64,000 bases of DNA from a bacterium (GTDB lineage Bacteria > UBA8248). How positions within the stretch are numbered: position 1 is the stretch's first letter; the number at the start of each line of letters is the position of its first letter. The notes beneath the pieces were generated by a model that did not search any database, was not told where the DNA came from, and worked only from the letters and a program-made list of their open reading frames with translations. The position numbers and the translations under genes are program-made. The stretch covers positions 4,032,001 to 4,096,000 of the forward strand of contig OZ241875.1 in NCBI GenBank assembly GCA_965203325.1, in the 5' to 3' direction. Shown here piece after piece: positions 6,227 through 43,449 of the stretch.

Positions 6227-6320
6227 ATTTTCACGTATGCCTGATAAAGTATGAGGCGGGATATTCCAATCGTTCGATAATTTTCGGACTGTTTCTCAAA
6301 ACCGAGGAGTGAAAATTCTG

Positions 6321-7295
6321 ATGAAAGCGGTGCGCGTACATGAATTCAACATGGATGTCCCCATGCGGGTGGACGAGGTGGTAGACGCACGGCCTGCGCC
6401 CGGCGAGGTGCTGATAAAAGCCGGCGCAGTCGGCGTGAACCCGGTGGATTTGGCGATACGGGCCGCCAAGCACCCTTACGCCAAGCTGGTGACGCCCCCT
6501 TATGTTCCGGGCGCCGAGGCGGCGGGAGAGATCATCGCCCTGGGCGAGGGCGTGGAGGGTTGGCGTATCGGGCAGCGGGTGTATGGCCGCGCCATGGGCG
6601 GAAGCTACGCCGAGAACGTACGGCTCGTCGCCGACGCCACGGCGGAACTGCCCGAAGCCTACTCATACGAAGAAGGCGCCTGCATTACGGTGGCGTTCTA
6701 CACGGCCTGGAACGCGCTCGTCATCAAGGCGCAGGCGGGACCCGGTGAGACGGTGCTGGTGCAGGGCGGCGCCGGAGGCGTCGGGATGGCGGCGATTCAA
6801 CTCGCCAAGCGGCTGGGTTGCCGCGTTTTCGCGACGGTGAGTTCCGATGCGAAGGCGAAGTTCTGCAAGGAGATGGGCGCGGACGAGACGATCAACTACC
6901 GCGAGGAGGATTTCGCCGAGCGCTGCATGGAACTCACCGGCGGACGCGGCGTCGACGTCGTCGTCGAGCTTTGCGCCTGCGATAATTTCGACAAGGATTT
7001 GGACGCCATCCGCGTGGACGGGAAAATCATCGTCATCGGTACGGGCACGGGCAAGGGGCCGGGCGCAGAATTCCGGGTGCCCGCGGTCATGACGAAAGAC
7101 GCCGTGGTGCTGGGGCTGGCCGTGGTGAATCTGTTTCCGAAAATGCCGGAGCTGGTGCGCCGCTTCACGCCCCTGCTGCGCGAGGGCGCGTTCCGGATCA
7201 ACGTCGATAAGGCGTCGAGTTTCGAAGAAGCGAACGAGGCGCATGATTACGTTCTGGAGGGTCAGTTTCTGGGCAAGGTCGTCCTGGTCCCGTAG
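6321..7295 (+). CDS. NADPH:quinone reductase (MDR/zeta-crystallin family), copy 1
   Basis: GVNPVD, PGAEAAGE, VLVQGGAGGVGMAAIQLAK, GRGVDVV. Confidence 0.9.
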   Translation: MKAVRVHEFNMDVPMRVDEVVDARPAPGEVLIKAGAVGVNPVDLAIRAAKHPYAKLVTPPYVPGAEAAGEIIALGEGVEGWRIGQRVYGRAMGGSYAENVRLVADATAELPEAYSYEEGACITVAFYTAWNALVIKAQAGPGETVLVQGGAGGVGMAAIQLAKRLGCRVFATVSSDAKAKFCKEMGADETINYREEDFAERCMELTGGRGVDVVVELCACDNFDKDLDAIRVDGKIIVIGTGTGKGPGAEFRVPAVMTKDAVVLGLAVVNLFPKMPELVRRFTPLLREGAFRINVDKASSFEEANEAHDYVLEGQFLGKVVLVP

Positions 7296-7325
7296 CTGCA
7301 GGTCGAGGCGCGAAAGGAGAACGCG

Positions 7326-8300
7326 ATGAAAGCGGTACGAGTAACGCGGTTCGGGCTCGAGCATCCCATGGAGTTGGAGGAGGTGCCAGAGCCAGAGCCC
7401 GGGCCGGGAGAGATGCTGGTGCGGATAGCGGCGGCCGGGGTGAACCCTCTGGAAGTCGCCATTCGCTCGGGCGATCATCCGCGCGCGGGGGCGATGGCGC
7501 TGCCTTATACCTGCGGCACGGACGTCGCGGGCGAGGTGGAAGCGGTGGGCGAAGGCGTCGAGGCGTTTGCGCCGGGCGACCGGGTGTGGGGTCGCGCCTC
7601 CACCGGGGCGTACGCCGAGAAAGGGCTGCTGCCCGCCAGTTCTACGGGCAGGTTGCCGGATGCGATGTCTTCTGCGGAAGGCGCCGCGCTGCCCATCCCG
7701 CTCCTTACGGCCTGGAACGCCCTGATCGTGAAGGGAGAGGCGGCTCCGGGCGATTGCGTGCTCGTGCAGGGGGGAGCCGGCGGGGTGGGCTATCTGGCGA
7801 TCCAGCTCGCACGCACGTTAGGCTGCCGGGTGTTCACGACGGTGAGTTCCAGGGAAAAGGGGGATTTCTGTCTTGCGGGGGGCGCCGAGGCGGCCATCAA
7901 CTACCGCGACGAAGACGTACCCGAGCGCGTGATGGAACTCACTTCCGGCCGAGGCGTCGACGTCGTCGTTGAGAATGTAGGTTGTGATAATCTGCCTTCG
8001 GATCTCAAGCTCAACGCCGTCAACGGCCGGATCGTCATCGTCGGAACGGGGACGGGCAAAGGCCCGGAGGTGACGATTCCGCTGCCTGCGGCCATGGGCC
8101 GGGACGCCCGGATTCTGGCGATCTCTTCGGGCAATCTGAATCCTCTCGTGCCGGGCATATTGAGGCGTCTGGCTCCCTTGCTGGAAAGCGGCGCCATCAA
8201 GCCTCACATCGGGCGGGAACTGCCCTTGGAGCAGGCGAATGAATCGCACGAGGTTCTTTTGAGCGGAAAATTCCTGGGCAAAATCAATTTGGCGCCCTAG
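7326..8300 (+). CDS. NADPH:quinone reductase (MDR family), tandem copy 2
   Basis: GVNPLE, VLVQGGAGGVGYLAIQLAR; same length as copy 1 and shares GTGTGKGP. Confidence 0.9.
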   Translation: MKAVRVTRFGLEHPMELEEVPEPEPGPGEMLVRIAAAGVNPLEVAIRSGDHPRAGAMALPYTCGTDVAGEVEAVGEGVEAFAPGDRVWGRASTGAYAEKGLLPASSTGRLPDAMSSAEGAALPIPLLTAWNALIVKGEAAPGDCVLVQGGAGGVGYLAIQLARTLGCRVFTTVSSREKGDFCLAGGAEAAINYRDEDVPERVMELTSGRGVDVVVENVGCDNLPSDLKLNAVNGRIVIVGTGTGKGPEVTIPLPAAMGRDARILAISSGNLNPLVPGILRRLAPLLESGAIKPHIGRELPLEQANESHEVLLSGKFLGKINLAP

Positions 8301-8336
8301 AGAGGAATCCCCGCATTTTGAGGAGGTGGATGAGAG

Positions 8337-9026
8337 ATGCTCCGGCTGGGTGATCATGAAATCGACCTGTGTTTGTTCGACGCCTACGGCACGCTGTTCG
8401 ATGTAACCGCTGCGGCGGCGGAAAAACAATCGGAGCTTGGCGATCAGTGGCAGGCGCTCTCCTCGCTCTGGCGGACCAAGCAGATTGAATACACATGGCT
8501 GAGAAGCCTGATGGGCAATCACGCGGATTTCTGGCGGGTAACGGGCGATGCGCTCGATTTCGCCATGGATACGCTGGGAATGAGTGATCCACGCCTTCGC
8601 GAAGAACTCATGATGCTCTACAAACGATTGAGCGCGTATCCCGAGGTGAAGGGCGTGCTCGCAAAGCTGCGGGAAGACGGGGTGCGGGCCGCGATTCTCT
8701 CCAACGGTTCACCTGAAATGCTGGGTAGCGCGGTAAAAAACGCCGGAATCGAAGAATATCTCGAAAACGTTCTATCCGTGGAGAGTGCCGGGATATTCAA
8801 GGTGCACCCGTCGGTCTATCAACTGGCGGTGGATCGGCTCGGCGTTCCCGCCGACAGGATTTGTTTTTTCTCATCGAACGGCTGGGATATCGCGGGCGCC
8901 TCGTATTTCGGGTACCGCGTCGTCTGGGTCAATCGTTTCGGGCAGAAAAAAGAGCGCGTCCCGCATGAAATCGACGCGGAAATCACCTCGCTCGATGAAC
9001 TGGAAAAGATATTGATCCAGAAGTGA
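8337..9026 (+). CDS. Haloacid dehalogenase type II
   Basis: FDAYGTLFDV, WRTKQIEYTWLR, ILSNGS, FKVHPSVY, SSNGWD. Confidence 0.92.
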   Translation: MLRLGDHEIDLCLFDAYGTLFDVTAAAAEKQSELGDQWQALSSLWRTKQIEYTWLRSLMGNHADFWRVTGDALDFAMDTLGMSDPRLREELMMLYKRLSAYPEVKGVLAKLREDGVRAAILSNGSPEMLGSAVKNAGIEEYLENVLSVESAGIFKVHPSVYQLAVDRLGVPADRICFFSSNGWDIAGASYFGYRVVWVNRFGQKKERVPHEIDAEITSLDELEKILIQK

Positions 9027-12349: not shown

Positions 12350-13495
12350 TTAGGATTTTCTTTTGAGTTGAACCCTTTTGCTGCCCGTACCCTCGCTCTG
12401 CGCCTCGCCCTTGCGGCGGTGGCGGATGAGTTCGGCGACGATGGCGACGCCGATCTCTCCCGGCGTGTCGGCGCCGATGTCGAGGCCGATGGGCGCATGG
12501 ACGCGCTCGATGAGTTCGCCCCTGGCGTAGCCCTTGTCCTGGAGGTGGCGATAGGTGAGCAGCACCTTGCTTTTCGAGCCTATCATCCCGATGTAGCGCG
12601 CGGCCGTCTTCATGGCCCATTCGAGGACGACCTCGTCGTTCGAGTGCCCCCGTGTGATGATGGCCAGATAGTCGGACTCGTCGACCGGTATTTTCTCGAA
12701 GATTTCGGGGAACTCGCCGACATAGAACGACTCCGCCATCGGGAAGCGCTCCTTGTTGGCGAACGAGGGCCGATCCTCGACTATCGAGACCCGGAAGCCG
12801 GCGAGATAGGCCGCCTGCGCAACGCAGAACGACACGTGCCCTCCGCCGAAAATATAGACGAGCGGCTGGCCGGATATGGGTTCGACGAAAATTTCGGTTG
12901 CGTCCGTGAGCGTCGAACGCTTTTCTCCCGCGCGCGCGGCGTCCCTGTTGAACTGCATGAGGGTGGGACTGCCGTTGCGGATGATTTGCGTGCTCTCCGC
13001 CCAGATTTCCGTTGAATAGTCGGGAATCTCGCCTACGGCGCTGCCGTCGCGCCGGAAGAGCATCTTTCTGGCCTCAGGCGCCGGGACGTCGAGGTCGCCC
13101 GGCTGAACGATGGTCGCCAGCGCAGCGCTGCCGCCCTGGTTTCTGATGCGGTTGATCTCGTCGAGCAACTCTTCCTGAAACGCCTGGAAGGGCTCCACGA
13201 GTATTTCCACCACGCCGCCGCAGATGTGGCCGCTGTCTTCGGCTTCCTGCTGGGTGAGGTCGAACCGGAGCTTTTCGGGTTCGCCCGTCTCCAATACGCT
13301 CATCGCGGTTTCCCACACTTCGGCCTCGAGGCAGCCGCCGCCGACGGTGCCCTCCGTGCTGCCGTCCTCGCGCACGAGCATCTTCGCGTCGCCGCTCATG
13401 GGCGCGGACCCCTTGCGGGCCACGACGGTGGCGAGCGCGCCGCTCTGGCCGTCTCCCTTGAGCTTCGCCATCTCTTTGAATACGTCCTTGCTCAT
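12350..13495 (-). CDS. xdhC: XdhC/CoxI family molybdenum cofactor insertion protein (duplicated N-terminal domain)
   Basis: ATVVARKGSAP...GTVGGGCLE...CGG; second ALATIV...KML unit; IFGGGHV, YIGMIGSKSK, HAPIGLDIGADTPGEI. Confidence 0.9.
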   Translation of the reverse strand: MSKDVFKEMAKLKGDGQSGALATVVARKGSAPMSGDAKMLVREDGSTEGTVGGGCLEAEVWETAMSVLETGEPEKLRFDLTQQEAEDSGHICGGVVEILVEPFQAFQEELLDEINRIRNQGGSAALATIVQPGDLDVPAPEARKMLFRRDGSAVGEIPDYSTEIWAESTQIIRNGSPTLMQFNRDAARAGEKRSTLTDATEIFVEPISGQPLVYIFGGGHVSFCVAQAAYLAGFRVSIVEDRPSFANKERFPMAESFYVGEFPEIFEKIPVDESDYLAIITRGHSNDEVVLEWAMKTAARYIGMIGSKSKVLLTYRHLQDKGYARGELIERVHAPIGLDIGADTPGEIGVAIVAELIRHRRKGEAQSEGTGSKRVQLKRKS

Positions 13496-13526
13496 TCCTT
13501 GCTCCACCTACGTGAAGTGATGATCG

Positions 13527-14354
13527 CTACGCATCCGGTGCGATCCGCATGAATACTTCACATTCGTTGTTCATACAAGATGTGAAGAGGATGCCGTCCG
13601 CCGGACCATGAGGCTTTCCGGCCAACTCCCATATAGTATAGGCCGTTTTTTCGAGTTTTTCCAGCGAAGTTTCCATATCCGCCTTGTTGATGACGATCCA
13701 CTTGCGCGCGCCGGCCTCCGCCTTGTGAAAAAGACCGAAAGGGTGTGCGCACAGCTTTCCTACGGCCTCGACCGTTATCTCCTCGTCGATCTGCAGGCTG
13801 CAAATGTGCGAAAGCGCCTCGGGACGAAAGACGTGCGTCTGATTCAAGGGCGCGCCCAGCGCGTCCAGCCCCACGACGCCCAGCACGGCGTCGAGATTTT
13901 CGGGCAGTACGGGCTCATCGCGACCCGGGGCCTTGATGGGCAGTCTTCTCGCCCCGTCCGCCTCGATGAGCGTGAGGGCATTACCCAGCGTGAAGTGGGC
14001 AATTTCCGAAGGCGTAAAACCGCTCAGCTTCATGCGTTGCTCGCTCTCCAGGCCCGGAATCGGGGCTTTCCCCTCGCGGCGGCGTGCGAACCACGAGACG
14101 CCGCATGCGTCCATGTAGGGGCGGAGGTTCTTTGCGAGCGTCGCGGCGTCGCCCAGGGCGAGCCCGAGCCCTTCCTCGGGCAGCGGCGCGAAAATTTTTG
14201 TTGTCGTCGTGAGAATCGCAGGTTTTCCGGTTTGCGCATGAAACTGCCTGGCGATGGCCGTCAGCAGGCTCGTTTTTCCGCCTCCGCCGACCGCCGCGAC
14301 GCTCTGGCCAGGCCCGACCCCGAGGGAGCGGACAATGTCGTCTTCCGCTACCAA
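13527..14354 (-). CDS. yqeC: Selenium cofactor biosynthesis protein YqeC
   Basis: VGGGGKTS, LTTTTKI, IEADGARRLPIKAP...EPVLP, GLDALG, INKAD; probable TTG start at 14354 (the longer 5' ORF is overlap with the vWA gene). Confidence 0.88.
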   Translation of the reverse strand: MVAEDDIVRSLGVGPGQSVAAVGGGGKTSLLTAIARQFHAQTGKPAILTTTTKIFAPLPEEGLGLALGDAATLAKNLRPYMDACGVSWFARRREGKAPIPGLESEQRMKLSGFTPSEIAHFTLGNALTLIEADGARRLPIKAPGRDEPVLPENLDAVLGVVGLDALGAPLNQTHVFRPEALSHICSLQIDEEITVEAVGKLCAHPFGLFHKAEAGARKWIVINKADMETSLEKLEKTAYTIWELAGKPHGPADGILFTSCMNNECEVFMRIAPDA

Positions 14355-16120
14355 TTGCGGCTCTCCATGCCGCCGAGCAGCTCGCGCCTCAGGATGTTCA
14401 CGAGTTCGGTGGAAAGCTGGGTGAGGTCCTGCACCACGATGTGGTTGGGGTAGATCTGCTCGACGAACGGGTCCACCACGCCGACGCCGATGACGCGGAC
14501 GCCGAGCTTCTGGAGCCGGTTCACCGTGTTCACGAGGTGGGTCGCATCCCCGTTGGGCTGGCCGTCGGAGGTGATGATGATGATTTTCTCCTCCTCGGGC
14601 CGCTGGATGAGCCTGCGGTAGGCGAAGAGCAGGTGCTCTTCGTCCCAGTTGTTGAAGCGCGGGTATATGTTGACGAGCCTGTTCTTGACCTGGGCGAAGT
14701 GATCCTCGAAACCCTTGTAGATGCGGTGCTGCAGCGGCGAGTGCCGGATGTGGCGGAACTTGAACGCGGGGATGTGGCCCAGAGCCGCCGCCATGGCGGC
14801 TTCCGAACTCTCGGTGGAATAGCCGATGACCTCGAAGGGCACGTCGAGGCGGTCGAGGGCTTCGGCGAAGAATATGGTCGCCTCCCTGGCGGCCATGTAC
14901 TTCGATTCTCGGTTCATGCTGCCGCTCTCGTCCACGAGCAGCGTGAAGCACACGTCGAGCTTCTCAGGCTCTTCTCTTCGGTGGAAGAGATGGAATTTCC
15001 CCAGCCGCTGTTTCCACAATTTCGGGAGGTTCAGCTTGCCCGAGCGGTGCGAGCCGCTGTAGCGTGTGTAGGTTCTCTCCTGGATGATCTGCATGAGCTT
15101 CCACACCAGCACCTTGATCTGGCTGCCCGCATTGTCGATGACTGCCGCGTATTCTTCGGCCTTGCCCTCGGGCGGCAACACGATGGTGCGCTCATCGGGA
15201 TGTTCGGCGGTGGGGTGGATTTCCTTCTTGTTCCCTTCGAGTTCGAACCAGGGGGCGGCCCAGTGCCCGAGCGCCGCGAGTTCCTCGGGACTCAGTTCGA
15301 CCTGCTCGCCCACGTCTTCCTCGTCGATTTCCTCGGCCGCTTCGGGGTGGAGCATCTCGAGCGCTTCGTCGTCGTCGCCCTCCAGGTTCTGGCTCTCGAT
15401 CTTCTGGAGAATTTCCTCGGGGATTTCCGATAAATCCTGATCCTCGCTCATCCGGGAGAGTTGTTCTTCGGTGAGATAGCGCTGGATGGCGTCGTAAATC
15501 TCGTTGGCGCAATCGAAGGCGGTTTTGGGGTCATCGGCGGCGCAGGCGCGGTCTACCAGCGGGATGAGCCTGTGAAAAATCTGGACGACGGCGGAATCGA
15601 ACCAGGCCGCCGGCAAGTCTCCGGGCCTGGAAGAGGGGACGCCGGGCGTTTGCCCGATCCCGGCGAGGTAGATCCCCCACTGGATCTGGAGAAACAAGGG
15701 GAGTTGCCCGCTCATCTGGTTGCGTTCGGCCGCCTCGATGGCCGGGAGGATGAAGGCGCGGAAATTCTTCTTGGTGCCGGGCAACGATTCCGCGAGGCGG
15801 TTTTCGCACCGCGCGTCCTCGAGCGTATGCCATATATGGAAAAGGCCCGGCCTCTCGCGGTTGGCGAGCGCGGCGCGCCCCGCCCAGCGGAACGTGCCGT
15901 GGATCTTGTGGGCCACCTCGATGAGCGTCATGCCCTTTTGGAATCTCAAGACATGCTCGTCGTTCAGACCGCCGCCCAGGCGCGCCAGGGTTTGTTCGGG
16001 GTCTTCGACGTGAATGGCGTCTTCGCCGTTCTTCGCCTTGGGGCCGAAGTTCAAGGCGAGGTCGTAATCGTGCGCGGTTACCTGCGCGAGCGCTTCGAGA
16101 CGGGCGCGTCGGCGTTCCAT
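14348..16120 (-). CDS. vWA-domain protein, CobT/NorD/CbbO type
   Basis: N-terminal LEDARCE motif, acidic linker, SGKLN, MIDAS LLVDESGSM and TSDGQP. Confidence 0.85.
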   Translation of the reverse strand: MERRRARLEALAQVTAHDYDLALNFGPKAKNGEDAIHVEDPEQTLARLGGGLNDEHVLRFQKGMTLIEVAHKIHGTFRWAGRAALANRERPGLFHIWHTLEDARCENRLAESLPGTKKNFRAFILPAIEAAERNQMSGQLPLFLQIQWGIYLAGIGQTPGVPSSRPGDLPAAWFDSAVVQIFHRLIPLVDRACAADDPKTAFDCANEIYDAIQRYLTEEQLSRMSEDQDLSEIPEEILQKIESQNLEGDDDEALEMLHPEAAEEIDEEDVGEQVELSPEELAALGHWAAPWFELEGNKKEIHPTAEHPDERTIVLPPEGKAEEYAAVIDNAGSQIKVLVWKLMQIIQERTYTRYSGSHRSGKLNLPKLWKQRLGKFHLFHRREEPEKLDVCFTLLVDESGSMNRESKYMAAREATIFFAEALDRLDVPFEVIGYSTESSEAAMAAALGHIPAFKFRHIRHSPLQHRIYKGFEDHFAQVKNRLVNIYPRFNNWDEEHLLFAYRRLIQRPEEEKIIIITSDGQPNGDATHLVNTVNRLQKLGVRVIGVGVVDPFVEQIYPNHIVVQDLTQLSTELVNILRRELLGGMESRNW

Positions 16121-16134
16121 GCCTCATCCCCCGG

Positions 16135-17019
16135 CTAGAAGTGGTTGTCTACGATGTCCTCGAGCACTTTGGCGTCGAAAGAGTTGACCTTGCTGAAGAT
16201 GGTCGAGACGGCGGCTTCCATGGGGTCGAACTGCGCCGCCATGCGCGCCCAGTCGATGAGGCGCCGGGTGCTGAACGTGCAGAACACCTTTTCGTTCTGC
16301 ATGGCCTCGCGCACGTCGTGGCCCACGCGCACCATGCGCTTGATGAGCTCTTCATCATTGTTGCCGCTCTGCTGCATGATGACCTCGACTTCCGCGTCGA
16401 ACGGCAGGTAGTCCATCTTCACGGTAACCGGGAAGCGGTCCAGAAGCGCCTCGTTCAGGGGCTTGGTGCCGCCGTATCTGCGGTCCTCGTGCGGGTTCAT
16501 GCTGGCGAAAAGCCTGAAGTTCGGATGCGGCTTGACGATGCGGCCGTCGTATTCCGACAAGACGATCATGCGGTCGTCGTCGAGCAGGCTGTGCAGGCAA
16601 AAGGCGATTTCGGGCAGGCACGCGTTGATCTCGTCGATGAGCAGCCAGTCGCCCGACTGCATGGCGTCGACCAGAATGCCGTTCACCCAGTAGGTGCCCT
16701 GTTCGTTGATCATCAGCTTGCCCACGAACTCGTCGACCGTGGTCATGCCGTTCAGGTTCACGCGCCGGAAGCCGTTGTTCGTCATGTGGGCGAGGTGGCG
16801 CACCGAGAGAGTCTTGCCGACGCCGGTCTCCCCGACGAGGAGAGCGGGGAGGTTCCTGCTCACCGCCCATGCGATGCGCTCGAGCGCGTCTCCCGCCGCC
16901 AGATAGAATTGCGCCGGGGGAACGAAGGAGTTCCCGTTCGTCTCGTTGATGGGGATTTCGCTGCGCCCGATCCGGTAGGTTCCGTTTTTCACCGTTTCGG
17001 TCAAGATTTCGGTAGTCAA
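16135..17019 (-). CDS. MoxR-clade AAA+ ATPase, CbbQ/NirQ/NorQ type
   Basis: Walker A GETGVGKT, Walker B LLIDEIN, FASMNP, LNEALLDRF, C-terminal FSTRRLI. Confidence 0.9.
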   Translation of the reverse strand: MTTEILTETVKNGTYRIGRSEIPINETNGNSFVPPAQFYLAAGDALERIAWAVSRNLPALLVGETGVGKTLSVRHLAHMTNNGFRRVNLNGMTTVDEFVGKLMINEQGTYWVNGILVDAMQSGDWLLIDEINACLPEIAFCLHSLLDDDRMIVLSEYDGRIVKPHPNFRLFASMNPHEDRRYGGTKPLNEALLDRFPVTVKMDYLPFDAEVEVIMQQSGNNDEELIKRMVRVGHDVREAMQNEKVFCTFSTRRLIDWARMAAQFDPMEAAVSTIFSKVNSFDAKVLEDIVDNHF

Positions 17020-17870
17020 TTCGCATACTCCATGGCTGAAACGCCGAACAGAAACATCATGATGGCCTCGAGCGCGCCACCTCCGATGGCGCGCGATTTA
17101 TCCGATATCGTATGGCAATGGGCGGGCTCGGCCCTCGGGTCGACGTCGCCCACCTTGAAGCCGGCAGGCACCTCGATGCCGTCTCTCAGCAGCCCCCGTA
17201 AAACGCCGTCGATGGCGGAGGTCACTTCCGCGCCGTCCACGCGGGCGACGGCCTCTCCCGCCCGCACCATGTCGCCTATCCCGGCGATGGAGGTGAATAC
17301 GCCTGCTTTGGGCGCACGCAGCAGCCGTTCGGTGGTGTAGCCGCCGATGGGGCCCGGAACGCCGGTGTTCGGTTTCGCGCCGCCTTCCAGTATGACCCTT
17401 CCCAGATCGTGTCCCCGGGAGGTCTCGACCACGGCGTGGCAATCGACGCCCGCCGTGAAGCCCGGCCCGAGGCCGACGACGACCTCCGCGTCGTCGATGC
17501 GCGTGCCGAGGTTTCGCTTCGCGAGAATCGCATCGACCACGACGGCGGGCCGGAGGTGATCGATCACCTCGGCTTGCGGGTCCACCATTACCGGAATCGA
17601 ACCCGCCTCCAGAATGGCGCGCGCTCTCTGTGCTTTCTCCGCTGGTGTCTTGCCGTCCGCCCGGGCGGAGATCAGGCCCTCCACTCTCCACTCATCCGCA
17701 TACAGACACTCGGCGAACGAGACGGTGCGCCTCACCATCGTGGGGTTTTCGATTTCGGTGATCGCGACCGGAAAACCCGCGCGGTGCAGGCGGTGCGACA
17801 CGCCGGTGGCGAGGTCGCCGCCTCCTTTGACGAGTACGAGCGTCTCGGTGATCGACTTGCGGCTGCTCAT
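17016..17870 (-). CDS. yqeB: Selenium-dependent molybdenum cofactor biosynthesis protein YqeB
   Basis: VKGGGDLATG, VRRTVSF, VVDAILAKRNLGT, GLGPGF, ETSRGHDLG, KVGDVDPR, ISDKSRAIGGGALEA; ATG at 17870. Confidence 0.93.
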   Translation of the reverse strand: MSSRKSITETLVLVKGGGDLATGVSHRLHRAGFPVAITEIENPTMVRRTVSFAECLYADEWRVEGLISARADGKTPAEKAQRARAILEAGSIPVMVDPQAEVIDHLRPAVVVDAILAKRNLGTRIDDAEVVVGLGPGFTAGVDCHAVVETSRGHDLGRVILEGGAKPNTGVPGPIGGYTTERLLRAPKAGVFTSIAGIGDMVRAGEAVARVDGAEVTSAIDGVLRGLLRDGIEVPAGFKVGDVDPRAEPAHCHTISDKSRAIGGGALEAIMMFLFGVSAMEYAN

Positions 17871-17875
17871 CGCAT

Positions 17876-18268
17876 CTAGTCTTCCACGAAGGCGATCGCG
17901 TCGATCTCGATGATCCACTCGGGTTTCGCCAGGCCGCTCACGACCAGGAGCGTGCTCGCCGGGTACGGCTCGTTGAAGTAGGTCTGCCGCACCTCCATGC
18001 ATCCCGGGACATTCGCAGAGTCGGTGATATAGACGGTCAGGCGGATGATGTCCGCCATCCCGGCGCCCGCCGCTTCGAGCGCGGCCTTGATGTTCTCGTA
18101 CACCTGCCGGGTCTGGCCCCTGATGTCGTCTCCCCCGACGGTGTTCCCATCCACGTCGACCGCCACTTGGCCCGCCAGCATGATGAGATGTCCGTTCGAT
18201 ACCTTCCAGCCGGTGGAATAAGCGGCGACCGGTTTCACCTTGTCGGAGTTGATCTGTTGTTTCGCCAT
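17876..18268 (-). CDS. RidA/YjgF family protein
   Basis: LAGQV, PASTLLVVSGL...IEIDAIA; ATG at 18268 after GGGAG. Confidence 0.88.
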   Translation of the reverse strand: MAKQQINSDKVKPVAAYSTGWKVSNGHLIMLAGQVAVDVDGNTVGGDDIRGQTRQVYENIKAALEAAGAGMADIIRLTVYITDSANVPGCMEVRQTYFNEPYPASTLLVVSGLAKPEWIIEIDAIAFVED

Positions 18269-18361
18269 TGGGTTCTCCCTCCCGCATCTCATCAGAAAAG
18301 AATGGTCATCTTCCCCGGAAACGGAAATCTAGCACGGGGCCGAACACGAGGCAACGCGAAC

Positions 18362-18647: not shown

Positions 18648-18943
18648 GAGAAGGGGGGACAGGGCGGGGATGCCTTTCAAGGCGAGAGTGGCAAGGGGGA
18701 TGCTTTTCAAGTCGAGGAGAGCGAGTGAAGCATGATTCACTCCGAACTCCCCAACTCCCCTCGTCGAACCCCCACCCCCCTTGTCAGGGGGCTTTTTTAG
18801 TGGCCCCGAGAGAGTGCGATTTTTCGTGAAATCGGATTTTTCGTGTGGTAGATTCTGACTGAAAATCATGACTGGAACCACCAAACCGCAGTGTGGCATG
18901 CGAATGAATTGCATGTTTCACCGAGCGGACGAGGAGAGGACCC

Positions 18944-19543
18944 GTGGGGAAAATGCCAAAGTACGAGATAAGCGAAGTTCTAGCGAAAGTCATGGGGCGA
19001 TTTTGGTGTCACGGCTATTCTGCGACATCGATCAGAGATCTCGAGGTGGCGACGGGTCTCTTTCGAGGCAGTTTATACCACGCATTCGGCGATAAGCGTG
19101 AGATGTTCGTCCAGGCGCTCCACCATTACGACCAGCTCTATCGCAAAGCTCCCATCGAGGAACTCGAAAAGCATCCCTCGCCACGCGAGGCGGTGCTGGC
19201 CGTTTTCGAAACCGCCGCCTCCGTCGCGGTGGAGGATGGTTTGCAAAACGGCTGTCTCGAAGTCAACGCCGCCCTGGAGCTTGGGGCGCACGACGAGGGG
19301 GTGGCTTCTTTCATTGCCGACGCTTTCGCCGGCATGTCGAAGTTCTTTTTCGCTTCTATCGAGCGGGGGCAGGCGCATGGGGAGATTTGCCCCGAAGTTG
19401 CTCCGGAGCAAACGGCGAAATCTCTACTCAGTCTGTTCCTCGGTCTGAGGGTGCTGTCGTGCGTTTCTCCCGACCGGAGCTTTCTGGAATCCGTCGTCGA
19501 ACAGGCGAAAGCCCTCTTGCCGCCGCCTACCCCTGCTTCGTAG
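18944..19543 (+). CDS. TetR/AcrR family transcriptional regulator
   Basis: FWCHGYSATSIRDLEVATGLFRGSLYHAFGDK HTH; GCLEVNAALEL. Confidence 0.9.
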   Translation: MGKMPKYEISEVLAKVMGRFWCHGYSATSIRDLEVATGLFRGSLYHAFGDKREMFVQALHHYDQLYRKAPIEELEKHPSPREAVLAVFETAASVAVEDGLQNGCLEVNAALELGAHDEGVASFIADAFAGMSKFFFASIERGQAHGEICPEVAPEQTAKSLLSLFLGLRVLSCVSPDRSFLESVVEQAKALLPPPTPAS

Positions 19544-19590
19544 GCTTCGGGACAAGAGCAGACATCGGTTTCGCGTATCCAAAACCTCCC

Positions 19591-20670
19591 TCAACCACCA
19601 ATATCGATCTTCCGCGTGACGGAGCGCGTGGGGCCGAAGGTGGGCATGTAGCACGAATGCTTGCCGGCGCCGCCCGCCACGATGAGGAGCAAATCGTTCG
19701 GCTCGTCCAGAAGCGGGAGCTCGAAATCATCGTCGTCTTCGTGTTCGGCTATTTCCTCGCCCCATGTCTGCATCCCCCACATGGCGCCGCGCTTTAGCTG
19801 GCGCACGGGCTTACGGGCGAGTTCGAAAATCCTCCCCTTCACGTCCGCTTTCGTGAGGCCGTCTCCCGCGATGGTCGCCGCGTGCTCGGGGCCCAAGGCG
19901 AGAACCGGTTCTCCGCGCAGATAGAAGTTGTTGCTCCCCATGATGGACATCGTATCGGCGGCGGTGGCGAGAATCCCCTCCGCCGTGTGGCTCACGTGGT
20001 CGTTGATGTTGTGGGGTCCCTCGCAGCCCACGAGCGTCACGGCGCTCTCATCGGGAGAAAGGCCGCGCTCGACGTGCAGCGGCTCCCACGGGGAGGCCGA
20101 CTCGTTCTCGGCGATGCAGAACGCGTATTTCGCGGGCGAGCCTTGCGTGGCGCGGTCCAGGACGCCGGGGCTCGCGCCGCCCACGTTCAGGAGCGTCAGG
20201 CGCATCGCGCGGCCGATCGTCGCGTTCGCCCGGTTGCCGGGGGCGAAGCACCCGTACTCGGCGTTGAGACCGATTTCCTCGACGATGGGGCCGTTGACGA
20301 TGATGAGGGGCGCCACCGGATGGGTCGTCGCCTGAATCGCGTGGAGCGAGAATTCGGGTTCGAGCACCGCCCGGGCAGCCGCCTCCAGAACGGGCATGTA
20401 CGAAGGATGGCAGCCGGCCATCACGGCGTTCACGGCGAGAACTTCCACCGTGATGACGCCCTGGCGAGGCGGCATGAGGCCGATTTCCGCATCGGACGCG
20501 AGGCCTGCGCCCTCCAACATCCGGGCGACGCGCTCGGGCGTGGGGGGAACGACGGGCAGGCCGTCGCCCCAGCCTCTCGCTTCCAGGAGGCGCGCCATCG
20601 CCTCGGGCGTGTCGCGCACCTTCACGCGCTCGCTCTCGAACATCAGATTTTCCTGGGAGTGGTCGTTCAC
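19591..20670 (-). CDS. Uncharacterised protein commonly linked to UGSC-family selenoproteins
   Basis: GWGDGLPVVPPTPERV, AVNAVMAGC, IVNGP, ANATIGRA, AENE..SPW, C-terminal VAGGAGKHSC; starts 12 nt after the UGSC stop. Confidence 0.75.
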   Translation of the reverse strand: MNDHSQENLMFESERVKVRDTPEAMARLLEARGWGDGLPVVPPTPERVARMLEGAGLASDAEIGLMPPRQGVITVEVLAVNAVMAGCHPSYMPVLEAAARAVLEPEFSLHAIQATTHPVAPLIIVNGPIVEEIGLNAEYGCFAPGNRANATIGRAMRLTLLNVGGASPGVLDRATQGSPAKYAFCIAENESASPWEPLHVERGLSPDESAVTLVGCEGPHNINDHVSHTAEGILATAADTMSIMGSNNFYLRGEPVLALGPEHAATIAGDGLTKADVKGRIFELARKPVRQLKRGAMWGMQTWGEEIAEHEDDDDFELPLLDEPNDLLLIVAGGAGKHSCYMPTFGPTRSVTRKIDIGG

Positions 20671-20682
20671 ATCGAAGCCCGC

Positions 20683-21291
20683 CTATGCGAAGAGCGCCTT
20701 GTGGCGCACGGTCTTGCGTGGCGGGACGTATTCGCGCTCGCGGTATTCTTGTCTGAGCGACTCCGCATCGCTCGTGAGGATGCGCCGCACCTCCTCCACC
20801 GCGCCGTCGCCCAGGGCGCGCGCTTGTTCGGGCGCGATGCCGCCGACCGGATGCGCCACGACGACTATCGGGAGGCCGGGCATTCCCAGCGCCGTTCTCT
20901 CGTTCGCGCCCAGGGCCGAAAATTCACTCGAGCAGAACGTGGCCGTCGGAACGCCCGCTTTTTCCATCTCCACCGAGTCATGGATACTCCATGACGTGCA
21001 GCTCCCTCAGTCGCCCACCGCGCAGACGGCGACGTCCACCTGTTCGAGGAATTCCTCGAGGCGATCCTCGGGCAGGGTGGGGTTCGGCTTCCCCCAACGG
21101 ACGACGTGCAGCGTCTCGTCTTCTTGCGCGAACAGCTCTTCGATCCGCTCGAGCAGGACGTCGGCGTTGGGCTTGTTGTTGTGGAAAAAACCGACTTTGA
21201 GACCCCCCAGGTCTTCGGGACGCTCCGCCAGGGGGTGGTCGCCCGCGCGGACGAAGGAGGTGGGTTGTAAGATTTCAATCGTCTGGCTCAT
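20683..21291 (-). CDS. UGSC-family selenoprotein (202 aa, Sec at TGA 21007-21009)
   Basis: ORFs 21007-21291 and 20683-20973 are in one frame, joined through a single TGA: ...VCAVGD-U-GSCTSWSIHDSVEMEKAGVPT...; UxxC motif; SECIS-like hairpin follows. Confidence 0.88.
20971..20998 (-). promoter_or_regulatory. Putative bacterial SECIS element
   Basis: mRNA UGA-GGGAGCUG-CAC-GUCAUGGA-GUA-UCCAUGAC-UCG-GUG: perfect 8-bp stem beginning 11 nt after the UGA, with G at the start of the apical loop. Confidence 0.75.
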
Positions 21292-21319
21292 CTCGAATCT
21301 CCGTAATGGGGATGTTGGA

Positions 21320-22485
21320 CTACAAACTCAATAAATTCTGGGCGATGACCATGCGCTGTATCTGGTTGGTTCCCTCGATGATCTGCAACTGCTTCGCGTC
21401 CCTCATGAACCGCTCGAGCGGATGGTCTTTCATGTAACCCGCGCCGCCGAGCACCTGAACCCCGTCCACGGCGGCCTTCATGGCGGCGTCGGTGGCGTAG
21501 CATTTCGCGGCGCAGATGAAATGCACGTGTTCTTTCCGGTAGCGGCCATTATCCACCATCGAGGCGGCGCGGTAAACGAGCAGACGGGCCGCCTCGGTTT
21601 CCATGAACATGTCGGCGAGCATGAACTGCACCGCCTGGTGCTGCGCGATGGGTTTGCCGAAGGCCTCGCGCTCCCTGGCGTAGTTCGAGGTGTAATCGAG
21701 ACACCCCTGCGCCAGACCCACGCCGCGCGCGCCGATGACGGGCCGCGCCTGGTTGAAGCCGAGCATGGCCGTCTTGAAGCCGAGGCCGCGCTCGCCGATC
21801 ATGTTCTCATATGGCACGCGCGCATCTTCCAGGAACACCTCACAGGTCGGAATGCCCCGCATCCCTTCTTCCGCTCATGACGCCCCACGCGGAACTCTCC
21901 CCTGGGAACGATGAAGAACGATATGCCCTTCGCCCCCAATTCGGGTTCGGTCTTCGCCGCCACGGTGATGAAATCCGCGACGCTCGAACCCGTGCAGTAG
22001 CATTTCTGGCCGTTGATGACCCACGAATCGCCGTCCCGGACCGCCCTTGTCGATATGTTCGCGGCGTCGGAACCCGCGTGCGGCTCGGTGAGCGAGAAGG
22101 CGGGCCGCAAATCGCCCCGGGCGACGCCTCCGAGATAGGTTTTTTTCTGTTCCTCGCTTCCGCCGATGGCGACGGGCCGCGTGGCGAGCAGGTGGACGGA
22201 GAAGAAAAGAGGGGAGTTCGAGCAAAAGCGCGCCATCTGCTCGATGGCGACACAGGTTTCGAGTATTCCCAGACCCGCTCCACCATAGGCTTCGGGAACG
22301 TAGAGGCCGAGCAGATCGTGGGATTTCAAGAGCTGAAAGATGTCTTCAGGGTATTCGTTGTTCTCGTCGACCGCAGCGGCGCGCGGCGCAATGTGGCGTC
22401 GGCTCAGTTCATACACCGTCTCGGCCAGCATCCGCTGGGATTCGTCAAGTTCGAACGCTCCCCCGGTATCCACCTTTCCCGTCAC
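21320..22485 (-). pseudogene. Acyl-CoA dehydrogenase with a 1-nt frameshift (pseudogene or sequencing error)
   Basis: ORFs 21799-22485 and 21320-21862 are the N- and C-halves; AAGAAGGGATG (~21860-21870) is 1 nt shorter than AAGATGGGGATG (KMGM) in the paralog. Confidence 0.8.
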
Positions 22486-22498
22486 CCCCGGATTGCCC

Positions 22499-23671
22499 CT
22501 AGAGGCCGAGCAGGTTCCGGGCGATGATCATCCGCTGTATCTGGCTCGTTCCCTCGACGATCTGGATTTGCTTGGCGTCGCGCATGAACCGCTCGAGCGG
22601 GTGGTCCTTCATGTAGCCCGCCCCGCCGAGGACCTGGATGCTGTCTATCGCGCACTTCATCGCCATGTCGGCCGCGTAGGTCTTGGCCGTCGAGAAATAC
22701 CTGGCGTTCTCCTTGCCGATCCGGCCGGCGTCCACCATCGCCGCCGCGCGGTAGACGAGCAGCCGCGCCGCCTCGATGTCCATGAACATGTCGGCGAGCA
22801 TGAACTGCACCGCCTGGTGCTGCGCGATGGGCTTGCCGAACGCCTCGCGCTCCTTGGCGTAATTGGCCGCGTAGTCGAGACACCCCTGCGCGAGACCCAC
22901 CGCGCGCGAGCCGATGGCCGGCCGCATCTGGTTGAAGCCTACCATCGCGGTCTTGAAGCCCGCGTTCAACTCGCCCACCTGGTTCTCGAGCGGGACGGCC
23001 ACGTTGTCCAAGTTGAGCATGCAGGTGGCGACCCCCCGCATCCCCATCTTGCGCTCGTGCTTGGCGATGCTGAAGCCCGGCGCGTCGGTGGGCACGATGT
23101 AGTAGGTGATCCCGCGCGTGCCCGCGTGGGGGTCGGTCTTGGCTGCGACGGTGATGAAGTCCGCCTTGTCAGGCCCCGTGCAGAAGCACTTCGTGCCGTT
23201 GATGACCCACTCATCACCCTCCTTGACGGCGCGCGTGCGGATGTTGCCGGCGTCTGAACCCGCGTGGGGTTCGGTGAGCGCGTAGGAGCCCCTGAGTTCG
23301 CCTTTCGCGAGGCCCGTCATGTAGTGGTCTTTCTGCTCCTGCGTGCCGCTTAAGTCGATGACGCGGCTCGAGAGCATGTTGAGCACGATGAACAGCGGCG
23401 AATTCGAGCAGACGCGCGCGATCTCCTCGATGGCGACGCACCCGCCCAGAAAGCCCATGCCGCCGCCCCCGTATTCTTCGGGGAAGAAGATGCCGAGCAG
23501 GCCGTATTCCTTTTGCAACTGGTAGATGTCCTCGGGGTATTCCTCGTTCTCGTCGATGTCGGCGGCCCGCGGGGCGATGTAGCGCTCCGAGAGTTCGCGC
23601 ACCGTCTGTCGGAGCATCTTCTGGGTTTCGTCGAGGTCGAATTGCAGCGTGGTTTCCGTTTGCAGGCTCAT
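22499..23671 (-). CDS. Acyl-CoA dehydrogenase
   Basis: YALTEPHAGSDA, INGTKCFCT, KMGMRG, REAFGKPI, GGAGY, IVEGTSQIQR. Confidence 0.95.
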   Translation of the reverse strand: MSLQTETTLQFDLDETQKMLRQTVRELSERYIAPRAADIDENEEYPEDIYQLQKEYGLLGIFFPEEYGGGGMGFLGGCVAIEEIARVCSNSPLFIVLNMLSSRVIDLSGTQEQKDHYMTGLAKGELRGSYALTEPHAGSDAGNIRTRAVKEGDEWVINGTKCFCTGPDKADFITVAAKTDPHAGTRGITYYIVPTDAPGFSIAKHERKMGMRGVATCMLNLDNVAVPLENQVGELNAGFKTAMVGFNQMRPAIGSRAVGLAQGCLDYAANYAKEREAFGKPIAQHQAVQFMLADMFMDIEAARLLVYRAAAMVDAGRIGKENARYFSTAKTYAADMAMKCAIDSIQVLGGAGYMKDHPLERFMRDAKQIQIVEGTSQIQRMIIARNLLGL

Positions 23672-23795
23672 TTCATGGCTCCAGCGGTTTGATTTTAGAT
23701 GGGAATGCGATAGGCAAGTTGATAAAAACCTTATAAAAATTGTCCAATCAATAAGTTATGAGGCAAAATTGAAACAATTCCATTAAATATATGCA

Positions 23796-24056
23796 CTAAC
23801 GGTAGATGTCTTTACGGTGCCCGATGTCGAGAATGGTGATTATAGAGCCGCCCTCAAGAGCATACAAAATCCGGTAATCCCCCGAACGTATCCTGTATAC
23901 ATCCCTCGAAATCCCGCGAACTCTCGTCCCTCCATGCGTCTCGCTATCCGCCAATCTGTCAATCCTGTTCCTTATCTGTCGCTTCAGTTTTTTGGTCGGG
24001 AGTTTTTCGAGGGCATGTATCGCCCTGTCCGTATACCGAATTTCGGACGGATTCAC
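23796..24056 (-). CDS. RelE/ParE family toxin
   Basis: YRIRSGDYRILY...ILDIGHRKDIYR. Confidence 0.88.
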   Translation of the reverse strand: MNPSEIRYTDRAIHALEKLPTKKLKRQIRNRIDRLADSETHGGTRVRGISRDVYRIRSGDYRILYALEGGSIITILDIGHRKDIYR

Positions 24057-24235
24057 TACTCGGTGATGCGATCAAGGGTCTCGGTTAATTCTTGTCCCGA
24101 TACGAGTTTCTCACGCCCTTTTTCGATATCTCTCAGGATTTTCTCGGCCATTTCGGCGTCGACGGCGTCTTCGAACTCTCCGGTTTCCTCGTGGTCCGCG
24201 ACATCTTCCAGATTTTTCGCGACGTTCCGACCCAT
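24056..24235 (-). CDS. Cognate acidic antitoxin of the RelE toxin
   Basis: 59-aa acidic ORF, RBS AAGGAG, stop overlaps the toxin start by 1 nt. Confidence 0.65.
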   Translation of the reverse strand: MGRNVAKNLEDVADHEETGEFEDAVDAEMAEKILRDIEKGREKLVSGQELTETLDRITE

Positions 24236-24264
24236 CTCGTTTCTCCTTGTCCATGGGTATTCGC

Positions 24265-24293
24265 AATATAATTTCACGCTTTCGCTTTGTCAA
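24265..24293 (-). promoter_or_regulatory. Sigma70 promoter of the TA operon
   Basis: TTGACA (24293-24288), 17 nt, TATATT (24270-24265). Confidence 0.65.
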
Positions 24294-24448
24294 TTTTGCA
24301 TTGATTTACACGAGAGGCATTTCATCCCTCTCGCAGCGATTGCGCCTCAACGCTTACGGGGGAATAATGTCCCGGATCCAATTTAGTTCGCTTAGGCGTT
24401 CGCCGAACCTCTCGACGTGCGCCCCGTTTCGATGGAGGAGTTTTGCGC

Positions 24449-25615
24449 ATGGACCTCGTCATACGCGGCGGATACGTCATAGACCCCTCACAGGGTCTGG
24501 AGGGGACGATGGACGTTGAGATCGCGCGCGGCCGCGTGCGGCAGGTCGCTCCCCACATCGAGCCGAATGGCAGACAGACGCTGAACGCGCGGGGGAAAAT
24601 CGTCACCCCCGGCCTGGTCGACCTCCACTGCCATTTTTATGAGGGTTTTACGCACTACGGCGTGAATCTGGAAGCGGCCATGCTCTCGCGCGGGGTGACG
24701 ACGGCGGTGGACACCGGAAGCGCCGGCGCGCAGACGTACCCGGGTTTCCAGGAATGGTTCCTGGAGAAGGCGCGCCCGACGGTGCGCGCTTACTTGAACA
24801 TCTCTGAAGGCGGGTTGTTGATAGACGGTCTGGGCGAGAACATCGACATGCGCGCGCTGCGCGTGGACAGGGCGGTGGATTGCTACCGGAAGCACCGGAA
24901 ATACTTGATCGGGATGAAGGTGCGCTTAAGCAAGAACGTGGTGGAGCGAAGCGGCACGAAACCCCTGGACGCGGCGCTCGAAGCGGCGGAGTCTCTGAAA
25001 GTGCCCCTTATGGTGCACGTGGGCGACACGCCCTCTTCATTGCCGAGCATCCTGAAGCGTCTCCGCCCAGGCGACGTGCTCACGCACGCGTTTCACGGCC
25101 GCAGCGAGAACATACTCGACAGGCGGGGCCGGGTGCGCCGCGCGGTGTGGGAGGCGCGGGATTCGGGCGTGCTGCTCGACGTGGCGCACGGGCGATCGAG
25201 CTTCAGTTTCGAGATCATGGAGCGGGCCATGGCCCAGGGTCTGATGCCCGGAAACCTGAGCACCGACCTCCATACGCACTGCATCCACGGCCCGGTGTAT
25301 GATTTTCCCAGTCTCATGAGCAAGTTTCTGGCCTTAGGACTCCCTCTCGCCGAAGTGGTGCGGCTCAGCACGCAGACGGCCGCCGAGTGGATCGGCCTCA
25401 AGGGGAAAGTGGGGACGCTCCAAAAAGGCGCGAGAGGCGACGTCGCCGTGTTCCGGGTGAAGGAAGGCCGGTTCGTATTCGAGGACAGCATGGGGGCGCG
25501 GCGCACGGGGAGGCGGATGCTCGAGGCGACGCACGTGGTCCTGGGGGGCAGGCTGCTCAGGCCGTCCGGGAAAGAGCGGCGTAGACTCACCGAGGTATCG
25601 GTAAAACAGAAATAA
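24449..25615 (+). CDS. Amidohydrolase/deacetylase (dihydroorotase-like metallohydrolase)
   Basis: PGLVDLHCH, GVTTAVDTGSAG, GMKVR, LMVHVG, DVAHGRSSF, STDLH. Confidence 0.88.
   Translation: MDLVIRGGYVIDPSQGLEGTMDVEIARGRVRQVAPHIEPNGRQTLNARGKIVTPGLVDLHCHFYEGFTHYGVNLEAAMLSRGVTTAVDTGSAGAQTYPGFQEWFLEKARPTVRAYLNISEGGLLIDGLGENIDMRALRVDRAVDCYRKHRKYLIGMKVRLSKNVVERSGTKPLDAALEAAESLKVPLMVHVGDTPSSLPSILKRLRPGDVLTHAFHGRSENILDRRGRVRRAVWEARDSGVLLDVAHGRSSFSFEIMERAMAQGLMPGNLSTDLHTHCIHGPVYDFPSLMSKFLALGLPLAEVVRLSTQTAAEWIGLKGKVGTLQKGARGDVAVFRVKEGRFVFEDSMGARRTGRRMLEATHVVLGGRLLRPSGKERRRLTEVSVKQK

Positions 25616-36340: not shown

Positions 36341-37346
<1,006 letters not shown>

Positions 37347-37363
<17 letters not shown>

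Positions 37364-40197: not shown

Positions 40198-43449
<3,252 letters not shown>

Follow-up and report, generated by a model that had tools for sequence, protein, structure and literature searches.

The stretch of DNA analysed here, hereafter the window, comprises 64,000 nucleotides (nt) from a bacterium of the GTDB lineage UBA8248 (contig OZ241875.1 of assembly GCA_965203325.1, positions 4,032,001 to 4,096,000), and carries on its minus strand a tight run of four genes that includes a member of the UGSC family of selenoproteins. The run begins with ACAD1 (22499..23671), an intact gene of the acyl-CoA dehydrogenase (ACAD) family coding for 390 amino acids (aa), and continues with ACAD2 (21320..22485), a second gene of this family that is frameshifted by a 1-nt deletion near 21866. 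It is followed by the UGSC-family gene (20683..21291), for which translation with TGA read as selenocysteine (Sec or U), together with hidden Markov model (HMM) matches, gives a 202-aa protein with the motif U95-G-S-C98, and it closes with the gene of a 359-aa protein of the ‘Unknown_1’ family (19591..20670), located 3' of the UGSC gene and called the partner in what follows. The intergenic gaps are of 13 nt (ACAD1-ACAD2), 28 nt (ACAD2-UGSC) and 12 nt (UGSC-partner). The order, strand and spacing that had been described for this run in the original prediction are confirmed by the coordinates of the open reading frames (ORFs), although ACAD2, there counted as a complete gene, has no intact ORF. 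Comparison with other genomes indicates that UGSC and its partner are a conserved pair, and several features of their relatives point to a selenol/thiol-driven redox enzyme.

The UGSC gene appears in the window as two ORFs separated by an in-frame UGA (21007..21009, minus strand), which is read as selenocysteine and constitutes the codon of U95. Translation of 20683-21291 with TGA as U produces the 202-aa protein (...AVGD-U95-GSC98..., with D94 before U95) that had been anticipated from the two ORFs. The join by itself is no evidence, because in this G+C-rich window a TGA links two open stretches of 80 codons or more in 47 places. The protein, however, gives one match to the Pfam UGSC model PF24696 that spans residues 6-173 of 202 and crosses the UGA codon (E 1e-47, 162.9 bits against a cut-off of 25), and also exceeds the cut-off of the NCBIfam equivalog NF041046 (138.6 bits against 125). 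Thus, the window protein is a full-length match to the named family, above both curated cut-offs and with its U-G-S-C motif, and differs from it in nothing essential.

Relatives were collected by running a degenerate DNA pattern, drawn around the motif and allowing TGA, TGC or TGT at the U position, against a single genome of each species, which gave at least 120 matches; since this pattern fixes the U/C-G-S-C motif, the invariance of the motif among the matched loci is no independent evidence. Among the 120 matches listed, the codon at the U position is TGA in 105 and TGY in 15, so that the alternation of Cys and Sec, proposed as a check on the gene, is observed. The UGSC HMM confirms 118 of these 120 (the 105 TGA forms and 13 true TGY forms), and the other two (L023 and L033, both TGT and with weak HMM scores) were rejected as chance matches to the pattern. 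A search with the single sequence retrieved ten database homologues, nine of them full-length and all nine with Cys at the U position, and a tenth (P0128, 81% identical) that stops exactly at ...AVGD, before the Sec codon. Full-length UGSC members are few in protein databases because gene callers truncate the Sec forms. No tRNA was found in the 64-kb window and no selA, selB, selC or selD among the window ORFs scanned; indirect evidence of Sec machinery is given by the YqeB and YqeC selenium-cofactor genes of the window and by a SelB gene that lies close to the UGSC/partner pair in 4 of 78 confirmed loci for which flanking DNA was available, a biased sample drawn with one motif pattern that is used throughout this work.

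Downstream of the UGA, and beginning 11 nt after it, lies a hairpin of the bacterial selenocysteine insertion sequence (bSECIS) type (20977..20995, minus strand), composed of a perfect 8-bp stem and the loop GUA (GUCAUGGA-GUA-UCCAUGAC), just as originally described. A G in the apical loop is among the usual rules for bSECIS elements. Hairpins of this kind number 41 per 64 kb, from which 0.008 would be expected to start within a 13-nt window, although the fold of the 76-nt stretch as a whole is not significant alone (z -1.19). Counting from the U of the UGA, 97-99 of the 99 distinct Sec-type sequences form the stem pairs 16-32 to 21-27, versus 4-13 of the 13 Cys-type ones. Conserved codons dictate part of the stem; the free wobble positions pair nonetheless, and compensatory changes among the 99 Sec forms are seen at pair 21-27 (C-G in 54, G-C in 45), at pair 16-32 (U-A in 85, A-U in 13) and at pair 18-30 (G-C in 64, G-U in 29, A-U in 4). 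The mean fold energy is -24.6 kcal/mol for the Sec forms (z -1.51), compared to -15.0 for the Cys forms (z +0.34). Because the HMM match spans the UGA, Sec and Cys alternate at this position and the stem covaries, the window gene is, on comparative sequence grounds, a genuine selenoprotein gene of the UGSC family, and the identity assigned to it in the original prediction holds.

The partner is a near-constant companion of this gene. A partner homologue (34-93% identity) is found on the same strand and adjacent or fused to UGSC in 72 of the 78 loci, and in the six loci without one only 1-502 nt of contig are left on the side where it would be expected. Three layouts are observed: the partner precedes UGSC in 36 loci, UGSC precedes the partner in 27 (plus the window), and both are fused in 9. 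Extra UGSC-like ORFs are present in six loci (L017, L024, L026, L054, L072 and L075) and adjoin an extra copy of the partner in L017, L024, L054, L072 and L075; one of the two extra UGSC-like copies of L054 is without partner, and no second partner match was found beside the extra ORF of L026. The architecture of the partner family, counted over its 150 best representatives, comprises 80 standalone proteins, 51 UGSC-partner fusions, 4 partner-UGSC fusions, 7 tandem partner-partner proteins and 8 other extensions, which gives 55 of 150 fused to UGSC. Sixteen of the 51 UGSC-partner fusions contain a whole UGSC domain and 35 are called from a start just past the Sec codon, and the 4 partner-UGSC fusions terminate at ...GD, directly before this codon. 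The tandem proteins are of about 710 aa (P0245, P0248, P0249, P0276, P0277, P0290 and P0362). These tandem forms, together with a UGSC-partner-partner-UGSC gene arrangement in L024 (8001-11000 in locus coordinates), are a hint of a dimeric partner core. The proposal that UGSC works with its 359-aa neighbour is therefore well founded: as far as sequences can tell, both are inherited as a unit in three layouts and act together, and these pairing data are as strong as comparative evidence gets for joint action.

The partner itself has no Pfam or NCBIfam match. When it was scanned at E <= 10 together with 78 relatives no significant Pfam match appeared, the best being Amdase (E 0.022, in 2 of 79 sequences), an HMM search against PDB sequences gave nothing meaningful (best E 0.12), and the ESM Atlas returned its own unnamed family only. 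This family is very large, with at least 7999 clusters at 90% identity and, among 1.84 billion representatives, 8292 clusters (50% identity) at E <= 0.001 and 2621 at E <= 1e-30, and its hosts include bacteria, haloarchaea and methanogens. The motifs AVNAVMAGCxPxYMPV...ATTH...VNGP of the partner match those displayed in Fig. S1A of PMC2398784, and because AVNxVMAGCxPxYMP, ATTH and VNGP are shared the partner is identified with the ‘Unknown_1’ domain. The UGSC/Unknown_1 fusions depicted there by Zhang and Gladyshev in 2008 are thus close counterparts of the window pair, which differs in having separate genes 12 nt apart.

Across the 150 best representatives, Arg154 and Glu188 of the partner are conserved in 150 and Asp36 and Asn149 in 146, and only two Cys are widely conserved, Cys87 (142/150) and Cys185 (133/150). 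The conservation of the partner residues holds regardless of the state of the UGSC motif, suggesting that the partner probably holds the active site and would be the catalytic subunit. An AlphaFold2 (AF2) model of the partner (pLDDT 91.9, pTM 0.92) has no fold match in the PDB at E <= 0.001 using Foldseek; the best matches, which are weak, are class I fumarate hydratases (7xky_A, E 7.6e-3, TM 0.27-0.32).

The AF2 model of UGSC (pLDDT 89.2) contains five strands alternating with helices and locates U95 between the strand 87-93 and the helix 96-111, with the U/C-x-x-C at the helix N-terminus. Its neighbours in the PDB are azoreductases, flavodoxins and lumazine synthase (TM about 0.43 by Foldseek), so that UGSC is modelled as a small flavodoxin-like domain. 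This departs from the thioredoxin (Trx)-like label that the family received in 2008 (PMC2398784), which is disfavoured because the model is an alternating beta-alpha fold with flavodoxin-like neighbours; the thioredoxin arrangement (beta-alpha-beta-alpha-beta-beta-alpha, with a mixed sheet) is not that of the model. Other searches were uninformative: an HMM search of PDB sequences with UGSC gave nothing meaningful (best E 0.035, a NAD-binding domain), a query of the ESM Atlas with P0123, a Cys homologue found in nature, yielded no named match of use beyond UGSC clusters, and a lax Pfam scan of 82 UGSC sequences revealed no second family.

Evidence for a redox role comes from the modules to which the pair is attached in other organisms. 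The partner protein P0270 carries a fused Pyr_redox_2 domain (E 6e-41), whose C-A-V-C motif we take to be of the thioredoxin-reductase type, and FeThRed_B, which is the catalytic chain of ferredoxin:thioredoxin reductase, is joined to the partner in P0323 (E 2e-21) and P0382 (E 1e-16), P0382 bearing in addition a piece of UGSC. A thioredoxin-reductase-like gene is also located beside the pair in 2 of 78 loci (L070 and L035). The attachment of two unrelated disulfide-reductase modules to the same pair implies that the U/C-x-x-C would be a redox centre to which NAD(P)H or ferredoxin supplies the electrons, and this comparative pattern supports a selenenylsulfide redox role for the U-x-x-C. In the C/U-x-x-C at a helix N-terminus and in the electron supply that these fusions and adjacencies imply, UGSC resembles the thioredoxin-type carriers, although its fold is not that of thioredoxin and it is bound to one dedicated partner instead of acting as a general carrier. 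The reductase-type role put forward in the original prediction is, consequently, plausible and gains from the fusions with Pyr_redox_2-like and FeThRed_B domains.

The genes around the pair suggest that the substrates are carboxylic acids or their CoA esters, because acid transporters and CoA-thioester enzymes recur in its vicinity. Family III CoA-transferases are present in 20 of the 78 loci, 12 of them starting on the same strand at most 360 nt after the UGSC motif, TctC receptors in 19, and ACADs, within about 8 kb, in 14. MaoC/mesaconyl-CoA hydratases (8/78), enoyl-CoA hydratases (6/78), MmgE/PrpD proteins (5/78) and LarA-like proteins (4/78) are also found, and at least one CoA-type enzyme is near the pair in 36 of 78 loci. 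In the Natrialba locus the neighbours include genes for an HMGL-like lyase, a fumarate-lyase-family gene and a PEP-mutase-family gene. Two loci (L051 and L078) from Methanobacterium and Methanobacteriaceae metagenome-assembled genomes carry a Cys-form pair on the same strand after the gene for the tRNA pseudouridine synthase TruD, flanked by cytidine deaminase and anaerobic ribonucleotide reductase genes.

Taken together, these data are best explained, at a confidence that we would put near an even chance, by UGSC and the 359-aa partner being the two subunits of one redox enzyme, which elsewhere are two domains of one protein. The U95-x-x-C98 at the start of the helix would cycle between the selenol/thiol and selenenylsulfide states, and the oxidised UGSC would be re-reduced by a protein of the thioredoxin-reductase or ferredoxin:thioredoxin-reductase type, fused or neighbouring in some relatives. 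Reduced UGSC could then transfer two electrons to a substrate bound by the partner, or offer it a selenolate nucleophile, in an active site made up of Asp36, Asn149, Arg154 and Glu188 plus the near-invariant Cys87; this substrate would probably be a carboxylic acid or a CoA thioester. In the window, the module would have come to share an operon with two acyl-CoA dehydrogenases by recruitment, and might there supply one reductive or selenol-dependent step in acyl-CoA breakdown. A bolder version of this explanation, advanced tentatively and with clearly less confidence, sees in UGSC plus Unknown_1 a widespread unnamed class of two-subunit selenoenzymes, with a partner fold unseen in the PDB, in which a selenolate/thiol pair recharged by thioredoxin-reductase-like or ferredoxin:thioredoxin-reductase-like proteins reduces or reductively cleaves carboxylic acids or CoA esters; it might be the aerobic-world counterpart, and possibly a distant relative, of PrdB/GrdB.

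Several observations weigh against a two-subunit redox enzyme of this kind. The 16 full-length fusions include 9 that keep C-x-x-C, 2 that keep only the first Cys and 5 that have neither, so the redox motif is dispensable in parts of the family. The five proteins without both motif Cys are P0256, P0283, P0288, P0359 and P0391, all of which keep the partner Cys87, and this subfamily may act differently or by a non-redox mechanism. Associations with reductases are rare: a fused reductase domain is present in 3 of the 150 best representatives and a neighbouring reductase gene in 2 of 78 loci, and the window has neither. The persistence of Cys87 in the five motif-less fusions gives no indication of a U/C-to-Cys87 relay. 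With respect to the substrate, CoA-transferases, ACADs and TctC are abundant in the Burkholderiales and relatives that dominate the sample, and the counts are raw ones without a background rate; the pair of both methanogen loci examined follows TruD and has no CoA enzymes around it, and the locus sample, being restricted to the listed matches to one motif pattern, is biased. The chemistry attributed to UGSC and its partner is something that we infer. A relay from the U/C-x-x-C to the partner Cys87 had been considered as part of the mechanism and was left unsupported, Cys87 being kept in the five motif-less fusions and absent in the Sec-bearing L004.

The alternative that survives best, which we consider rather unlikely all the same, is that the partner is a self-sufficient, non-redox carboxylate enzyme (a hydratase/dehydratase, isomerase or decarboxylase) and that UGSC is chiefly a structural small subunit, with the U-x-x-C as a redox switch or protective site instead of the donor of electrons in catalysis. 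The full-length fusions that lack both Cys, and the two that lack the second, would be readily accommodated in this way, as would the conservation of Arg154, Glu188, Asp36 and Asn149 whatever the UGSC motif, and hydratases, MmgE/PrpD proteins and LarA-like racemases are among the neighbours of the pair. The sole recurring resemblance in the PDB, although weak, is to the class I (Fe-S) fumarate hydratases, which have themselves a large and a small subunit, fused in some organisms, and share with the pair a link to dicarboxylates. On the other hand, Sec is costly and normally catalytic and is used by 105 of the 120 listed members, the thioredoxin-reductase-like and FeThRed_B fusions imply that electrons are delivered, and the Foldseek resemblance to fumarate hydratases is sub-threshold, no Pfam fumarase (Fumerase) model being matched by a partner that has just two widely conserved Cys. 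A related candidate suggested by the fumarate hydratase matches, an Fe-S hydro-lyase with U95, C98 and Cys87 as three ligands of the cluster, was rated low in view of the weak TM scores, the lack of a Pfam link and the members free of the motif.

Less probable, and indeed quite doubtful, is a reading that goes beyond the PrdB/GrdB likeness noticed in the original prediction, in which UGSC is a distant homologue of the PrdB/GrdB subunits of Stickland reductases and the partner, with a pyruvoyl-type electrophile, binds an amine, the Sec attacking the alpha-carbon and cleaving a C-N or C-X bond, and Cys98 resolving the selenoether. The cleavage sites known from pyruvoyl enzymes lie at strand turns, and the model of the partner places Cys87 between two helices, unlike such sites. 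Compared by eye, the PrdB/GrdB-type sequences of the Global Ocean Sampling (GOS) set displayed in the supplement of PMC2398784 share with UGSC the U-x-x-C, a Glu at position +15 and, at +19 to +21, the triplet [I/L/V]-[P/S]-T, in the same ungapped register after U, and also an Asp and a hydrophobic strand before U, although here there is an offset of one residue that displaces the Asp. Both systems have a small Sec subunit and a larger adjacent partner (PrdA/GrdE in the Stickland reductases), and, by analogy with the mechanism described in PMC11229817, in which the structural work rests on ColabFold models, a Cys close to the Sec nucleophile would resolve it, and a dedicated reductase would restore its reduced state. 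The local likeness in register, as judged by eye, supports the proposal in part. There is no similarity at the HMM level: Pfam GRDB (PF07355) is matched by 0 of 82 UGSC members at E <= 10, a search in which the HMMER filters drop most matches above about 0.1. When proteins were searched with the UGSC profile (E <= 10) by a word-indexed method, which is blind to weak links of this kind, the best 120 of 934 matches were all UGSC members. No PrdB/GrdB chains appear among the listed Foldseek PDB matches of the UGSC model, and regular expressions for PrdB-like Sec motifs gave 0 hits when all loci and the window were translated in six frames. The partner, which has no significant Pfam match in any of the 79 sequences scanned, has consequently none to PrdA/GrdE either, no prd or grd genes were seen near the pair in the loci surveyed, and the context of UGSC is organic-acid/CoA metabolism and not amino-acid fermentation, its hosts including many soil and groundwater bacteria and haloarchaea that are not amino-acid fermenters. 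The comparison with PrdB/GrdB is, therefore, reasonable as an analogy, and membership of that family is not shown.

A dedicated Sec-dependent flavoprotein module, in which UGSC and its partner would exchange electrons or substrate specifically with the two ACADs of the window, had also been proposed and appears improbable. ACAD1 has the domains Acyl-CoA_dh_N, _M and _1 in a single reading frame (Pfam), and its top NCBIfam model is the acryloyl-CoA reductase AcrC, with 395.5 bits under a cut-off of 640; because this score is sub-cut-off, no substrate was assigned. ACAD2 is split into two frames, with the N-terminal and middle domains in the ORF 21799-22485 and the C-terminal domain in the ORF 21320-21862. 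Alignment with the intact gene of locus L038 reveals a single-base gap within the conserved K-M-G-M-R-G region (window 21799-21866), and the gene is unbroken in the relatives L038 and L056; its window copy is likely to be a pseudogene or to carry an error of assembly. Three observations speak for the module: the four genes are tightly spaced on one strand, their order is the same in L038 and L056, and 14 of the 78 loci have an ACAD no more than about 8 kb away. However, the order ACAD1-ACAD2-UGSC-partner was found in the window and in these two of the 78 loci only, whose partners are 93% and 90% identical to that of the window, so that it belongs to one lineage and, for this exact arrangement, the refuting outcome named in the original prediction has occurred; in other loci the ACADs are at varied distances and on either strand, ACAD2 is frameshifted in the window, and no gene for an electron-transfer flavoprotein or a reductase is present among the window ORFs scanned. 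General coupling to two ACADs is thus not sustained by the neighbourhood survey: the ACAD operon is a local arrangement, and it is the CoA-thioester theme, and not a specific flavoprotein coupling, that is a trait of the family.

The weakest alternative, that the TGA is an ordinary stop or a mutation separating two small ORFs or marking a pseudogene, with the hairpin as a coding accident, might invoke the 47 chance joins in the window and the conserved codons for Ser-Trp/Cys...His-Asp that force part of the stem, but is so improbable as to be negligible given the single HMM match across the codon, the TGA at this same codon in 105 of 120 listed matches from many phyla, the covariation of free wobble positions (pair 21-27 is formed in 99 of 99 Sec forms against 7 of 13 Cys forms) and the SelB gene near the pair in 4 of 78 loci.

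Other features of the window complete the picture of the locus. Convergent to the operon there is a gene for a TetR-family regulator (18944..19543, plus strand; Pfam TetR_N and TetR_C_13), a possible regulator of the operon; its NCBIfam score for the acrylate regulator AcuR (29.9 bits, cut-off 247) is weak and lies below threshold. Promoter and terminator scans of 18800-24500 gave results no better than shuffled sequences. Just downstream of the operon, and also on the minus strand, lies a maturation cluster for a selenium-dependent molybdenum hydroxylase (12350-18287), composed of genes for an XdhC-family factor (12350-13507), the selenium-cofactor protein YqeC (13527-14951), a CobT/VWA-like protein (14348-16120), a CobS/AAA_5-like protein (16135-17019) and the selenium-cofactor protein YqeB (17016-18287); this second selenium trait implies that selenophosphate is synthesised in the organism. 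Further away, on the plus strand, a PyrR-binding RNA element (Rfam RF00515, 35621-35730, 55.6 bits against a gathering score of 54) is located upstream of a pyrimidine operon (pyrB 36341-37363, pyrC-like 37269-38669, carA 38423-39757, carB 40198-43449), and an IS256-family transposase gene is found at 49631-50899 (NF033543, E 9e-97). At the beginning of the window (6309-9026, plus strand) there are two adjacent paralogues of PIG3-type NAD(P)H quinone oxidoreductases followed by a gene for a type II haloacid dehalogenase.

UGSC is a named selenoprotein family, with a reference example from Hyphomonas neptunium (PMC9312934, PMC13188914), whose fusion to Unknown_1 in GOS reads was published in 2008 by Zhang and Gladyshev (PMC2398784). 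The original prediction, in stating that no characterised pathway with this gene set was known, overlooked that fusion. Reviews up to 2026 list the family without a function (PMC13188914), and none is given in the available text of PMC2398784, PMC13188914, PMC1976440 and PMC9312934. In the portions available, the 2008 paper describes the fusion only, without the near-universal adjacency, the two gene orders, the tandem partners or the fusions to reductase domains. Relative to the published UGSC literature found, the near-obligate pairing in both orders, the tandem partners and the links to thioredoxin-reductase-like and ferredoxin:thioredoxin-reductase-like proteins, as well as the flavodoxin-like model and the covariation of the SECIS stem, represent modest advances.

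For the annotation of the window, the outcome is that the two ORFs should be merged as one selenoprotein gene, and that the linkage to ACADs is not to be generalised. For the family, UGSC would be one half of a fixed two-part enzyme whose other half belongs to a very large family that is represented by no model in the Pfam and NCBIfam libraries searched and by no structural precedent in the PDB. Natural Cys-form pairs exist in the harmless and culturable Natrialba asiatica, Parapusillimonas granuli, Candidimonas nitroreducens and Methanothermobacter, and could be expressed without Sec machinery. In this way, an orphan selenoprotein would become a defined biochemical target, with relatives that are wired to disulfide-reductase modules.

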